A DNA stretch of 64,000 nucleotides from an uncultured Clostridium sp. GTDB taxonomy: Bacteria > Bacillota > Clostridia > TANB77 > CAG-508. A model generated the notes under the pieces. The model made no database searches, was not told the origin of the DNA, and saw only the letters and a program-made list of their open reading frames with translations. Positions 14,228 through 28,983 of this stretch are shown here, in pieces (the first letter of the stretch is position 1; each line of letters starts with the position of its first letter). The stretch spans positions 5,072-69,071 of the forward strand of contig CANBES010000005.1 in the NCBI GenBank assembly GCA_947367845.1, read 5' to 3'. The position numbers and the translations under genes are program-made.

Positions 14228-14566
14228 ATGTTTATTTTCGATATATCAAATCCACTAACACTAATATTGATGCTAGCCGCAACAGTACTAATGATATTTT
14301 TATCACAAGAAATTAAAAAAAGTATGATAGGGGCAGTTACATTATTTGCATATTTAATTATATTAATTGTACATGTAGTACAACTAGTAACATTACCAGC
14401 AGAATTTAGATATCTGGTATCAACATTATCAAGATGCTTAGTTATCGACTTTGTATTTATTCTAGTAACATTTTTCTCATATTTATGGGTAGATGATATA
14501 GAAGCAAAAGCTTTGGGTAAAAAAAGTGTAGATAATACATTAGACTGGTTTTGGAAGAAAATATAA
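14228..14566 (+). CDS. small integral membrane protein (3 TM predicted by eye)
   Basis: ATG after a GGAGGGG RBS; hydrophobic helices; a terminator hairpin follows. Confidence 0.6.
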   Translation: MFIFDISNPLTLILMLAATVLMIFLSQEIKKSMIGAVTLFAYLIILIVHVVQLVTLPAEFRYLVSTLSRCLVIDFVFILVTFFSYLWVDDIEAKALGKKSVDNTLDWFWKKI

Positions 14567-14684: not shown

Positions 14685-15851
14685 ATGTTCAAAGTTACAG
14701 TACTAAAAGCCAAAGATATTGCCAAGATTTTTGCAGGAATCAGCTTAACCATACTAATGATATTACTATTTAGCAAAAATTTTGGAAAAACATCAGAAAA
14801 AACTGAGTTGGAAAATTTAGAAATAAACTTAAACTCTATAACAAAGCACAGTATGGTAAACTGTATGGACCAAGTAATACCAACAATGTCAAAATTGAAC
14901 GAAGAATATAGGCAAATAGCAAAAGAAGATGAAGAAGAAGGAAACATTTTACAAGCAATGCTAAAAACTCAAATATCATCAATAAAAGGAATGGAACAAA
15001 TAGAATTAAAAGCTCAAAAAGCAGAACAAGAAAATACAGAAGATAATAAAAATGAAGAAAAACAAGAAAAAATAGAACTGGCAAAAACAGGAGTGCAAAC
15101 ACAAGTTATAACAAATAATCCGATAAGTGAAAATGCAAATGTACAGTATGAAAATGTAAAAATAAAAAATCAAACAAAGTATACATTAACAGAAGACATA
15201 TTAAATCCAGATATAACAATAGAAAATAAAAATATTTTATTATTTCATACACACAGCTGTGAAAGCTACACACCAAGCGAGAAATACCCATATACACAAA
15301 CTGGGAACTTCAGAACAACAGACTTAAACTTCACAGTAACAAGATTAGGTACAGAGTTGGAAAATCATTTAAAAGAATATAATTATAATGTAGTACATAG
15401 CACAGATTATCACGACTATCCAGCATATAATGGATCATATACACGTTCACTTGCAACAGTGGAAAATATGCTAAAAACAACTCCTTCAGATATAATAATA
15501 GATATACATAGAGACGCAATTGGTTCAAGACCTGATTATGCACCAACAGTAAGAATTGGAGAAACAGAAGTAGCTGCACAAATGATGTTTGTTATAGGTA
15601 CAAATGAAGGTGGACTTTGGCACCCAAATTGGCAACAAAATTTGAAATTTGCGGTTAAAATTCAACAAAAGGCAGAAGAGATGTACCCAGGTTTGTTTAA
15701 ACCGATAATGTTAACAACATCTAGATATAATCAGCATGCTGGCAAATTTGCTAGTATTATTGAAGTAGGTTCAACTGGGAATACGCTAGATCAGTGCTTG
15801 AATAGTATGAAATATTTGGCTAAAGTAATGGATGAAGTTTTGAAGAATTGA
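14685..15851 (+). CDS. spoIIP: stage II sporulation protein P
   Basis: N-terminal TM segment and an E/K-rich linker. The C-terminal domain carries LLFHTHSCESY...IDIHRDA...FVIG and resembles the SpoIIP amidase fold. Confidence 0.75.
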   Translation: MFKVTVLKAKDIAKIFAGISLTILMILLFSKNFGKTSEKTELENLEINLNSITKHSMVNCMDQVIPTMSKLNEEYRQIAKEDEEEGNILQAMLKTQISSIKGMEQIELKAQKAEQENTEDNKNEEKQEKIELAKTGVQTQVITNNPISENANVQYENVKIKNQTKYTLTEDILNPDITIENKNILLFHTHSCESYTPSEKYPYTQTGNFRTTDLNFTVTRLGTELENHLKEYNYNVVHSTDYHDYPAYNGSYTRSLATVENMLKTTPSDIIIDIHRDAIGSRPDYAPTVRIGETEVAAQMMFVIGTNEGGLWHPNWQQNLKFAVKIQQKAEEMYPGLFKPIMLTTSRYNQHAGKFASIIEVGSTGNTLDQCLNSMKYLAKVMDEVLKN

Positions 15852-15893
15852 ATTATACAAAGTTGAGGACTGTTTATTATAAAGCAGTTCTTT

Positions 15894-16330
15894 AAATTTG
15901 TTACTGGTTAATGATTTGGAAGAGTTTGGTGGGACAATAGGGCAAATTTTAGCTTTTATTTTGTTCATTCCATTTGATAAGAATTTGTATGTTTATAAAA
16001 AAAGGAGCTTTCACTCAGGCTCAAGTAATTATTTTATTTTTGAATAAATTATGGATGTGCCCTGAAATAAGTTTAGAAATTCTTCAATTATTTTATGGAA
16101 AGAGTTCGTGCTGTGACACGGAAGGGAGCCATAAAATAATTTTAGAATTTCTTTGCTTATGTAAGAAACCGAAGAATTTATGAAAAAATAAAATAATTAC
16201 TTGCCCGCGAACATTACTTTTTTTATAAACTTACATATTCTATATCTCATTACATTCAAACCATAAAAGCTAAAATTTGCCCTATTGTCCCACCAAACTC
16301 TTCTATACCATTAACTAGTAACTTTAATTT
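15894..16330. repeat. 437-bp imperfect palindrome with perfect 41-bp inverted repeats (15919-15959 / 16263-16303) and a 182-nt inner hairpin (16022-16203)
   Basis: GAAGAGTTTGGTGGGACAATAGGGCAAATTTTAGCTTTTAT is exactly reverse-complemented at 16263-16303. There are further 19-bp (16022-16040 / 16185-16203) and 13-bp (16086-16098 / 16129-16141) perfect stems. Confidence 0.85.
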
Positions 16331-16343
16331 TGCAAAAATAAGC

Positions 16344-16372
16344 TTGAAATCTTGAACTGAATTATATATAAT
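16344..16372 (+). promoter_or_regulatory. sigma-A-like promoter upstream of pgi
   Basis: TTGAAA - 17 nt - TATAAT, just outside the right end of the palindrome. Confidence 0.45.
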
Positions 16373-16410
16373 GTAACCAGAAAAAGAAAAGAAAGCGAGG
16401 CGTAAGAGAA

Positions 16411-17718
16411 ATGGCAGAAATAAAATTAAATTTAAAAAACACAGGGATAACACAAAAATCAATAATGGCATACAAAGAAAAAATAAAAAGCATACACGAA
16501 GACTTACACTCAAGAGCAGACGATGAAAAAGACTTCGTAGGATGGTTAGACTTACCAGTAAACTATGACAAAGAAGAATTTAAAAGAATAAAAAAAGCAG
16601 CAAAAAAAATAAAAAAAGAATCAGATATACTAGTAGTAATAGGAATAGGAGGTTCATACTTAGGAGCAAGAGCAGTAATAGAAGGGTTAACAAGCTCATT
16701 TAGCGATATGCTACCAGCAAAACAAAGAAAAAATCCACAAATTCTATATGTAGGAAACAACCTAAGTCCAAACTACATAAATGAACTAATAGAATACATA
16801 GGAGACAAAGACTTTTCAATAAATGTAATATCAAAATCAGGAACAACAACAGAACCAGCAATTGCATTCAGAATATTTAGAGAAATACTAGAAAACAAAT
16901 ATGGAATAGACGAAGCAAGAAGCAGAATATATGCAACAACAGACAAAGAAAAAGGAGCACTAAAAACACTAGCACAAAAAGAAGGATATGAGCAATTTGT
17001 AGTGCCAGACAATGTAGGTGGAAGATACTCAGTGCTAACAGCAGTAGGTTTATTGCCAATAGCAACAGCTGGAATAAACATAGACGAATTAATGGAAGGT
17101 GCAAGAATAGCAAGAGAAAGATACAATGACCCAGAGCTAAAATACAACGAATGCTATCAATATGCAGTAGCAAGAAATATCTTATACAAAAAGCGCAAAG
17201 ATATCGAAATACTAGTAAATTACGAACCAAAAATGCACTACTTTACAGAATGGTGGAAACAACTATATGGAGAAAGCGAAGGAAAAGAACACAAAGGAAT
17301 ATTCCCAGCAGGAGTAGACAACACAACAGACTTGCACTCAATGGGACAATACATACAAGAAGGAAGAAGAAATCTATTTGAAACAGTAATAGAAGTAAAA
17401 GAAACAAACACAGACATAAAAATCAACCCAGATGACGACAATTTAGACGGATTAAACTACCTAAGTGGAAAAACGCTAGATTACGTAAATAAAAAAGCGA
17501 TGGAAGGAACAATACAAGCACACGTAACAGGAGAAGTACCAAACATCAAAATAACCATGAACGAGCTAGATGAAAAAAATATAGGAGAACTAATATATTT
17601 CTTCGAAAAAGCATGTGCAGTATCAGGAAATATACTAGGAATAAACCCGTTTAACCAACCAGGAGTAGAAGAATACAAGAAAAACATGTTCAAACTACTA
17701 AAAAAACCAGGATATTAA
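16411..17718 (+). CDS. pgi: glucose-6-phosphate isomerase
   Basis: Bacillus-type 435-aa PGI with [20 protein letters not shown] and GGRYSV motifs. Confidence 0.93.
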
Positions 17719-22112: not shown

Positions 22113-22120
22113 TATAACAA

Positions 22121-22150
22121 AAAAGAAAGATTTTAAAAAATCTTTCTTTT
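22121..22150. terminator. bidirectional terminator between convergent genes
   Basis: AAAAGAAAGATTTT AA AAAATCTTTCTTTT perfect palindrome with A- and T-runs on both sides. Confidence 0.65.
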
Positions 22151-22174
22151 ATCATATATATATTAAATTAAATT

Positions 22175-22339
22175 CTAAACAAATACATTTACAATGGTTA
22201 ATAAAGCTAAATATAATAAAGTTTTTACAGAGATACGAAATGTAGCTCTTGAAGCTTTCTTTATAACCATTAATTTATGATCTTTTCTTACTGTTAGTGC
22301 TAAACTATTTGGCACTGGTACATATTCCTTAGTATTCAT
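22175..22339 (-). CDS. small tail-anchored hypothetical protein (54 aa)
   Basis: ATG at 22339 preceded by AAGGAG on the minus strand. Sequence MNTKEYVPVPNSLALTVRKDH...TLLYLALLTIVNVFV. Confidence 0.5.
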   Translation of the reverse strand: MNTKEYVPVPNSLALTVRKDHKLMVIKKASRATFRISVKTLLYLALLTIVNVFV

Positions 22340-22615
22340 AATAATCAACTCCTTAGTCTTGTGTAAATTAAAAAAATTAAGCTTTTGTATTAAAAATTTC
22401 ATCTCTTATAAATTAAGTATAAAACAAAATATTACAAATGTCAACACTTTTTGTAATAAAAATGTAATAAAAATGTAATGTTTGTTATAAAAATGTAAAA
22501 AACAAGACAAAAATACAAAAACTTTATAATAATCATTTACATTGTAGTTAAAATAATATATAATAAAAAGGCCTTAGTAATTAGGTAAAACTAATGAGAG
22601 GAGGTATTTGTACAA

Positions 22616-22711
22616 ATGACTAGTTACAGTTTGATATGGTTGTTAATGCAAGAAATTGAAAAATTGAACGCAGAAATACAATCATTACAGAACAAACTAG
22701 ATAAAGAGTAA
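22616..22711 (+). CDS. putative 31-aa coiled-coil micropeptide
   Basis: GAGAGGAGG RBS 7 nt upstream. Sequence MTSYSLIWLLMQEIEKLNAEIQSLQNKLDKE. A GTGGGG/CCCCAC hairpin plus T-run follows. Absent from the ORF track because it is under 60 aa. Confidence 0.3.
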   Translation: MTSYSLIWLLMQEIEKLNAEIQSLQNKLDKE

Positions 22712-22975
22712 TCTTTATTGAGGTGGGGGAAAACGTTACATAACCCCACTTTATTTTTTGGCATAAAAAAAGTATGTGTCGTTACCCACATACTGGTATT
22801 CGCTTAATGACTAGTTACATCACTTATAAGCTACATTTATTATAGCATATGATCATATTTTATGCAAGTGTTTTTTTAGTAATTTATAAAAACTTGTTTC
22901 AATTAAGCAAAATGTAGACTTTTTTTGTTCAATATGATATACTGTACACATCAAAAAAGAAAGGAAAAGAGATAA

Positions 22976-28620: not shown

Positions 28621-28963
28621 AGAGTAAATTAAATAGTCGCTGGTAAATTCCGAAAGGAACTACGAGAGGAAAGTCCGGGCTCCATAGAGCAAAGATGCTA
28701 GATAACGTCTAGTGAGGGTGACCTTAAGGAAAGTGCAACAGAAAATAACCGCCGAGAGGTAAGGGTGAAAAGGCGAGGTAAGAGCTCACCGCTGTTATAG
28801 TGATATAACAGGTCAGTGTAAACCCCATCTGGAGCAACACCTAAGAAAGAAGATTAAGCCTGCTCGGCAACTTCTTGAATTGCGTGGCTTGAAGTATATA
28901 GCAATATATACTCTAGATAAATGACTATTTTAAAAGACAGAACCCGGCTTACAGATTTACTCT
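28621..28963 (+). ncRNA. rnpB: RNase P RNA (bacterial, Firmicute type-B-like)
   Basis: Universal P4 strands GAGGAAAGTCCGGGCTCC (28666-) and ACAGAACCCGGCTTA (28937-). P1 pairing AGAGTAAAT / ATTTACTCT at the two ends. No ORF; a terminator hairpin follows. Confidence 0.9.
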
Positions 28964-28983
28964 ATATAAATTAAATACAATTC

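Follow-up and report, generated by a model that had tools for sequence, protein, structure and literature searches.

Elements of the kind called MITEs (for miniature inverted-repeat transposable elements) include Correia, ERIC and RUP among prokaryotes. Prokaryotic MITEs are shorter than 500 bp and AT-rich, with terminal inverted repeats, flanking direct repeats, an AT-rich intergenic target and a stable stem-loop (PMC10969869); QMITE2 of Coxiella burnetii has direct repeats of 7-9 bp, terminal inverted repeats of 23-29 bp and a core of 113-145 bp (PMC10969869). The element analyzed here lies in a 64,000-nt stretch of contig CANBES010000005.1 from an uncultured Clostridium sp. (the 64-kb window, from whose first letter window positions are counted). 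It occupies window 15900-16322, between spoIIP and pgi, as an imperfect palindrome of 423 bp that contains a perfect inverted repeat of 41 bp. These 423 bp are an insertion with a target duplication, missing from five closely related lineages. With modest confidence, the element is taken to be a non-coding, MITE-like foldback element that is moved in trans and belongs to a small, undescribed family of long hairpins in low-GC Clostridia.

Like prokaryotic MITEs, the window element is below 500 bp, non-coding and AT-rich, combines inverted repeats and flanking target repeats with a very stable stem-loop, occupies an AT-rich intergenic site by a terminator, and is present or absent between related lineages. 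It differs from them in that the inverted repeat takes up the entire element (2 x ~200 bp) rather than over 4-30 bp at the ends, in that the ends are least and the centre and unpaired blocks most conserved, in that duplication length varies (9 vs 11-12 bp), and in that no parent insertion sequence was found for it in the collections described below.

REPINs, which are mobilised by RAYT, and the IS200/IS605-derived PATEs are intergenic, non-coding imperfect hairpins of ~100 nt or shorter, whose bulges and mismatches, not the stem sequence, are read by a single-strand-specific HUH enzyme and which insert without target duplication. The present hairpins are also intergenic, non-coding and imperfect, but two members of the family carry 9-12 bp flanking duplications, and no RAYT, TnpA or Y1 HUH transposase gene was found near any member. 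In integron attC sites, structure is conserved over sequence: unpaired or extrahelical bases of one folded strand give specificity and the stems co-vary. These sites are 57-141 bp long, stand in cassette arrays beside an integrase and recombine without target duplication. Conservation of structure over sequence is shared with the window element, whereas a cassette array, an integrase and the attC size are not found here. For eukaryotic foldback elements, which are found in another domain of life and owe their movement to known transposase superfamilies, we know of no description of an orientation-specific conserved tip. The likeness to these elements and to hairpin MITEs is that a single long inverted repeat, folding back on itself, makes up almost all of the element, as in Made1/mir-548 (PMC1784062). 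6S RNA (RF00013) resembles the element in being a rod-like hairpin with a central bubble, and TwoAYGGAY (RF01731) in having two AYGGA-type motifs near the tip; however, the element had no 6S match, and TwoAYGGAY was below threshold in one family member and gave no match in the others scanned.

The insertion site

Many close relatives of the PGI protein were found, and contigs of five lineages were compared (PGI identity 98% for L013, 94% for L006-L009 and L015, 93% for L010 and 88% for L012). The gene order pgm-hyp-spoIIP-pgi-thioesterase-pyk was kept in all five, with a spoIIP-pgi spacer of 95-140 bp vs 559 bp in the window. Flanks in L013 were 90-95% identical to those of the window at the DNA level; the alignment broke off at 15900 and was picked up at 16322, and the two window flanks overlapped by 11 nt on L013 (2912-2922, blastn). 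The empty site in L013 reads GCAGTTC-TTTATTTTT-GCAAAAATAA and the occupied site in the window reads GCAGTTC-TTTAAATTT-(GTTACTGG...CTAGTAAC)-TTTAATTTT-GCAAAAATAA, with the insert in parentheses. Since the 9-mer between the terminator stem and GCAAAAATAA stands on both sides of the insert, it was assigned as a target-site duplication of 9 bp (TTTAAWTTT), 8/9 identical; on a strict reading, the duplication covers no fewer than its first five bases (TTTAA). Insertion took place in the T-tract of the spoIIP terminator, and 21 nt separate the end of the insert from the pgi -35 box, a box that is conserved in relatives.

In the original prediction, made from the letters of the window, absence from close relatives was to mean a chance inverted duplication. 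The absence found here reflects an insertion, and related elements were present in other genomes. A local accident, either an inverted duplication in situ or an assembly artefact, is very improbable, even though the window holds a single copy and assemblers are known to make palindromic chimeras: the sequence is not derived from the flanks, its arms are only 78% identical, homologous hairpins were found at six other loci from other samples, and the identical sequence was present in a separate SPAdes assembly (ENA ERZ14241383), though this may come from the same sample as the window.

In ERZ14241383 the element has the same orientation and is split over two contigs with a 77-nt overlap inside the palindrome (L001 1-77 and L002 4264-4340, corresponding to window 15948-16024). 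The break may be due to strain variation, handling of the hairpin or low coverage. A contig break inside the element and perfect 41-bp inverted repeats 303 bp apart would also suit an invertible DNA switch, one of the readings originally offered, in which a site-specific recombinase flips the 303-bp interior between the repeats and controls pgi or spoIIP. This is very unlikely, as the break (15948/16024) does not coincide with either edge of the 41-bp repeat, the orientation did not differ between assemblies, and the unit as a whole was inserted recently, with duplication of its target. In addition, the interior is near-palindromic, so that flipping would change little, no outward or directional promoter is conserved, and a family search of gene products from window ~1-32 kb found no recombinase or transposase within ~15 kb of the element.

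Extent and predicted fold of the palindrome

The 41-mer GAAGAGTTTGGTGGGACAATAGGGCAAATTTTAGCTTTTAT (15919-15959) recurred as its exact reverse complement at 16263-16303 (two matches, vs 0 in 100 shuffles), which confirmed the perfect 41-bp terminal inverted repeats that had been predicted. Four nested arm pairs were obtained by repeat search: 15900-15959/16263-16322 (60 nt, 93% identical), 15980-16004/16217-16241 (92%), 16022-16050/16175-16203 (93%) and 16062-16098/16129-16165 (81%). The third includes the perfect 19-mer of the original prediction. Overall, the left and right arms were 78% identical (157/201 columns), with mainly transversions among the mismatches; at this average a perfect run of 41 nt is not expected and stands out. 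The arms do not pair outward to ~15894/16330 as had been thought: the inverted repeat ends exactly at 15900 and 16322, and the 9 bases beyond each end are the direct repeat.

The whole element was predicted to fold as a single hairpin, with -185.7 kcal/mol (z = -17.1) for the + strand and -176.9 kcal/mol for the - strand; the range quoted for the element is -181 to -186 kcal/mol, with z about -17. At the apex, where an open loop of 30 nt had been proposed, the fold has a 6x6 purine-rich internal loop (AAAGAG/AGGGAG) and a 6-bp hairpin at 16105-16122. GC content was 29.3% for the element and 29.9% for the 64-kb window.

All six reading frames of the element are broken by stops, leaving no coding capacity. 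The 69-aa open reading frame (ORF) at 15974-16183 and the pgi promoter-like element at 16344-16372 (11/12 matches) were both present as described earlier. As a gene, the ORF was rejected as a translation artefact with no family match.

Related hairpins at other loci

A profile-free search with the 69-aa ORF against 1.84 billion protein representatives led to P0123, which had been called as an ORF over a 184-bp palindrome of L017. Two further protein profile searches led through P0127-P0130 to L018 (the same locus as L019 and L020), L022, L023 and L024, and a viral-contig scan with the conserved tip of the family added one partial copy, L021. The family comprises seven loci including the window, the six related hairpins coming from other samples. 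P0123 and P0127-P0130 were also rejected as genes; their frames are open only in members that were found via ORFs, are broken in L021 and L023, and have no family matches.

Members are ~180-270 bp (L017 and L024), 423 bp (window) and ~490 bp (L018) long. The L018 element (295-784) is flanked at 283-294 and 785-796 by a direct repeat of 11-12 bp, ACAACCTTGCT(A), which is perfect and in complex sequence and was taken as a second, independent target duplication. Neighbours include a tRNA and a MutY-like gene (L018), the C-terminus of SpoIIE (L024), and a DUF285 protein and a 2155-aa repeat protein (L021). Relative to its neighbours the element is sense in the window and antisense in L018, L021 and L024.

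All seven members share, in one orientation, the arrangement ..ATGTG..TTAGAAATTCTT..ATTTTATGG-AAAGAG-UUC(variable hairpin)GGA-AGGGNN-CCATAAAA..AGAATTTCTT; AACCGAG is also common to most of them. A covariance model, R1, was built on the nearly invariant apical module of ~120 nt. It gave 68-126 bits on the + strand of the seven members and 33-47 bits on the - strand, which was scored in six, the + strand being higher by 54-89 bits; the window copy scored 125.9 bits (+) and 43.5 bits (-). An R1 scan of 128 kb of sequence gave no additional copy, no second copy was found in the 64-kb window by blastn or by the family covariance model, and literature on the motif strings and on MITEs of Firmicutes contained no matching description.

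The conserved tip also contains a mini-ORF, ATG GAA AGA GTT CAT TTT stop (MERVHF), at L017 644-664, L018 525-545 and L024 465-445 (- strand); the window counterpart at 16096-16140 is MERVRAVTRKGAIK. With no Shine-Dalgarno sequence upstream, the mini-ORF is probably a by-product of the conserved motif. A tRNA gene (L018 156-244, - strand) has its 5' side ~50 bp from the L018 element. In L023 (190-582), the called ORF P0129 beside the element copy ends, by eye, like the C-terminus of a LAGLIDADG homing endonuclease, with no Pfam match, and is followed by GC-richer, structured-looking DNA with no Rfam match. The partial copy in L021 (7720-7830, left half and tip) is on an 88.7-kb contig classed as viral in IMG/VR, between the 2155-aa repeat protein and the DUF285 protein, where it adjoins a terminator-like hairpin on the other strand.

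Conservation of loops and stems

Homology between the window and L018 elements spans window 15963-16262, in the 303-bp interior, and stops at the inner limit of the perfect 41-bp repeat, with outer arms that are unrelated in the two elements. Within the interior, asymmetric or unpaired blocks (GATAAGAATTTGTA, GCTTTCACTCARGCTCAAG, ATGTG, TTAGAAATTCTT, AACCGA, CTTGCCCGYGAACATT and ATTCTAWATCTYATTACATTCAA) were 91-100% identical between the two elements, the stems between them 53-66% and the outer arms 44-48%. Inside each of the two elements, arm and arm were 59-89% identical. The original prediction had singled out the perfect 41-bp segment amid diverged flanks: it does stand out against the average identity of the arms, but across the family it is the ends that are least conserved and the centre and loops that are most conserved.

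Pairing in the apical module was kept in 91.5% of cells, vs 37-56% with the partners slid, 8 pairs were changed on both sides, and the covariation score was reached by 0/500 shuffles. In the tip hairpin, 3/6 pairs were changed on both sides among members (GUG/CAC in the window, AUU/AAU in L017 and L024, AUUUUU/AAAAU in L018, CAC/GUG in L021 and L022), and a U.G pair was kept in 6/7 members, with C-G in the seventh. Neutral drift, even with hairpin repair, would let the loops diverge as fast as the stems, which argues that the loops are under selection. The + strand was predicted to fold 2-9 kcal/mol better than the - strand in 5/5 full members, and G.U-type mismatches exceeded A.C-type mismatches by 13 to 5 (~7 to 1 as independent events with L021 set aside). 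The strand bias of the fold and the excess of G.U hint, modestly, at one strand being the form that folds and functions.

Function as a structured RNA or as folded single-stranded DNA (ssDNA) gains some support from this pattern of conserved loops and co-varying stems over seven elements. The element might be, or carry, the gene of a rod-like RNA of ~120-300 nt riding on mobile DNA and, for example, binding a protein, in which case the hairpin would be RNA structure. Structured RNAs are classically marked by unpaired blocks that are conserved and stems that co-vary, and the orientation-specific conservation (R1, 126 vs 44 bits for the two strands of the window copy), the U.G pair with its single C-G exception, the better + strand fold and the G.U excess point the same way. 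Such a gene is nevertheless unlikely to account for the element: no member was matched by an Rfam family, promoter-like sites are missing from the left arm of the window copy, members stand in either orientation to their neighbours so that co-transcription cannot explain expression, the perfect 41-bp duplexes would be substrates of RNase III, and repair inside a DNA hairpin can also maintain arm complementarity with no RNA involved.

The abrupt limits of homology bear on another reading, in which a ~180-bp element like that of L017 sits in the centre of a second palindrome and this inside a third with 60-bp arms, each having targeted a hairpin tip. L018 homology starts and stops abruptly at the inner edge of the 41-bp repeat (15963 and 16262) with unrelated outer arms beyond it, L017 and L024 hold the inner part only, and L022 diverges abruptly from L018 partway down the stem. 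But the whole 423 bp are missing from the sampled relatives, so that the layers would either have come as one unit or all have been acquired since the split from L013; there are no internal target duplications at the layer borders, and the outer layers were nowhere found alone in genome, metagenome, viral, phage or plasmid scans. Such a stack of independent palindromes is improbable.

Rfam scans covered the region, the entire window and five related loci and assigned no family to any hairpin member; apart from a sub-threshold TwoAYGGAY match, they gave only the tRNA in L018 and RNase P in the window. The closing stem, central bubble and terminal stem-loop had been likened to 6S RNA; the 6S covariance model matched nothing in 15000-17500 at E <= 10, nor anything in the entire window at gathering score. 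A weak TwoAYGGAY match at 16061-16166 (30.3 bits, E = 0.043) includes two AYGGAA motifs at the element tip, but it is below the gathering score of 43, its alignment omits the two inner hairpins of that model, and there was no match in L017, L018 or L022-L024. As 6S is moreover a conserved housekeeping gene, whereas the element is absent from close relatives, an RNA gene of either type is exceedingly improbable. Readings of the conserved motifs as sigma-54, sporulation-sigma or sigma-70 promoters were made by eye and rejected, as the spacing misfits or the motif is not conserved.

Interpretation as a mobile element

The window element has the features of a mobile element that is small and non-autonomous; the kind is ordinary and the form unusual, and its undescribed family has seven loci. 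It has 423 bp and no transposase gene, 60-nt terminal inverted repeats at 93% that stop exactly at the borders, a flanking duplication with the empty site in L013, 29.3% GC, an AT-rich intergenic target in the terminator T-tract and a stable stem-loop; its terminal inverted repeats are longer than the 4-30 bp usual for MITEs. Among the three readings first proposed (MITE, invertible segment or long structured RNA), MITE is the best supported, by the inverted repeats, the 9-bp duplication, the empty site, the AT-rich intergenic target and the non-coding sequence, though there is one copy in 64 kb, MITEs having several per genome.

The element would have entered the T-tract of the spoIIP terminator after the split from the nearest sampled relative, with integration at a staggered cut and fill-in duplicating 9 bp (TTTAAWTTT). 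As it encodes nothing, it would have to be moved in trans, by an enzyme whose gene may lie at another place in the genome or on a visiting element. The family keeps its asymmetric unpaired blocks and the ~120-nt apical module in one orientation, but not its ends, while the stems vary freely yet stay complementary. The conserved loops and tip may be cis-acting features for the mobilising machinery, probably read on a folded single strand; with centre and loops conserved over ends and with a variable duplication length, recognition of a folded strand fits better than binding of the ends by a classical transposase. Locally, an extra hairpin with a 200-bp stem followed by a T-run (TTTAATTTT) between spoIIP and pgi would probably act as an added terminator or insulator. 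The spoIIP terminator retains its T-run TTTAAATTT, and read-through from spoIIP would be blocked at least as well as before. The -35 and -10 boxes of pgi are untouched by the insert; the region upstream of them is replaced.

Several observations weigh against the interpretation as a MITE-like element. The window duplication is 8/9 identical and AT-only, and taken alone can also be read as a 5-bp duplication; it differs in length from that of L018 (9 vs 11-12 bp), and no flanking repeats were evident for L017 or L024, nor for L023. Conservation is lowest at the ends, the reverse of what holds for a textbook MITE, where the transposase is bound by the ends. Recognition of a folded strand, for its part, is at odds with the known hairpin-reading systems (RAYT/REPIN, IS200/IS605 and attC), which make no target duplication. 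The family rests on seven loci only, and among the neighbour genes examined no transposase was linked to any member. No parent insertion sequence, for a MITE an autonomous relative with shared terminal repeats, was found in genome, metagenome, viral, phage or plasmid collections with the core of the 41-mer or the whole element, in searches that needed exact 18-20-mers and would miss diverged parents. A 20-mer of the 41-bp repeat gave chance matches only in 185,579 species genomes and a metagenome collection, from which the source genome seems to be absent or in which it seems to be masked.

The search for other copies of the 41-mer that had been recommended accordingly yielded none, with one copy of the element in the 64 kb. 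Chance 20-mer matches were at an intergenic site of a high-GC metagenome-assembled genome (L003 = L004) and in coding sequence (L005). The former comprises 22-23 nt of the 41-mer (TTTGGTGGGACAATAGGGCAAA) at L003 5337-5359 (= L004 2218-2240), after the end of an rpoN-like gene; it is probably a coincidence, as ~1 chance 20-mer match is expected at that collection size. The whole element gave nothing relevant against phage and plasmid collections. In viral contigs, an 18-mer of the repeat core, a 21-mer of the window's own tip and the left-end block found nothing, and the block GCTTTCACTCARGCTCAAG gave two chance matches in coding sequence.

A more far-reaching proposal, possible but held only tentatively, is that the family represents a new kind of mobile element, characterised by its structure instead of its ends: a long hairpin whose conserved asymmetric loops and ~120-nt tip would be read by an enzyme on one strand, folded as ssDNA or RNA, and which would yet integrate with 9-12 bp duplications. 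Or else it represents a mobile gene for a new rod-shaped RNA. We know of no HUH/REPIN, attC or classical MITE system in which folded-strand reading is combined with target duplications of 9-12 bp. Should the pattern hold in more genomes, it would suggest that the mobilising enzyme recognises a strand in folded form, or else that mobile DNA has spread an undescribed structured RNA in gut-type Clostridia. At this locus, the odd 559-bp spoIIP-pgi spacer is explained by a mobile hairpin placed between the terminator of a sporulation gene and the promoter of a central glycolytic gene with neither broken. In practice, such elements break short-read assemblies, and spurious ORFs are called across them.

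Features of the locus

Table 1. Coordinates (window positions) of the foldback element, its parts and the adjoining features
Feature	Position	Strand	Details
Left outer arm (terminal inverted repeat)	15900..15959	none	15900-15918 imperfect (15/19); 15919-15959 perfect 41-mer
Right outer arm (terminal inverted repeat)	16263..16322	none	16263-16303 = perfect 41-mer
303-bp core	15960..16262	+	15963-16262 homologous to L018 element, inner part to L017 and L022-L024; conserved asymmetric blocks between co-varying stems
Conserved apical module of the family	16053..16177	+	..ATGTG..TTAGAAATTCTT..TTTTATGG/AAAGAG/hairpin/AGGGAG/CCATAAAA..AGAATTTCTT..AACCGA
Tip	16099..16128	+	internal loop AAAGAG (16099-16104)/AGGGAG (16123-16128) around hairpin TTCGTG-CTGTGA-CACGGA (16105-16122)
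Left copy of duplicated target, TTTAAATTT	15891..15899	none	comparison with empty site in L013
Right copy of duplicated target, TTTAATTTT	16323..16331	none	comparison with empty site in L013
spoIIP (upstream neighbour)	14685..15851	+	Pfam SpoIIP, E = 3.6e-61; syntenic in all relatives
spoIIP intrinsic terminator hairpin	15865..15892	+	terminator scan; same hairpin in L013, there followed by undivided TTTATTTTT
pgi promoter-like site, TTGAAA-17-TATAAT	16344..16372	+	intact, 21 nt past insert; conserved in L013 and L015
pgi (downstream neighbour)	16411..17718	+	Pfam PGI

All genes within ~15 kb of the element are on the + strand. They are housekeeping genes, for TruB, a class A penicillin-binding protein, CysRS, an epimerase, ArgRS, PGM, an acyl-ACP thioesterase, pyruvate kinase, EngA, PlsY, GpsA and Dtd, or genes with no family match. 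The largest ORF-free gap of the window (22113-22975, 863 bp) had no Rfam match at E <= 0.1, no tRNA and no long or comparable palindrome, and the 64-kb window contains no tRNA genes. The RNA of RNase P (bacterial class A) at 28621-28967 (+), with 287 bits, is the sole Rfam family at gathering score in the window. Between pgm and spoIIP, a 112-aa ORF at 14228-14566 (+) belongs to no Pfam family and is kept in position, with 112-117 aa, in all relatives examined.

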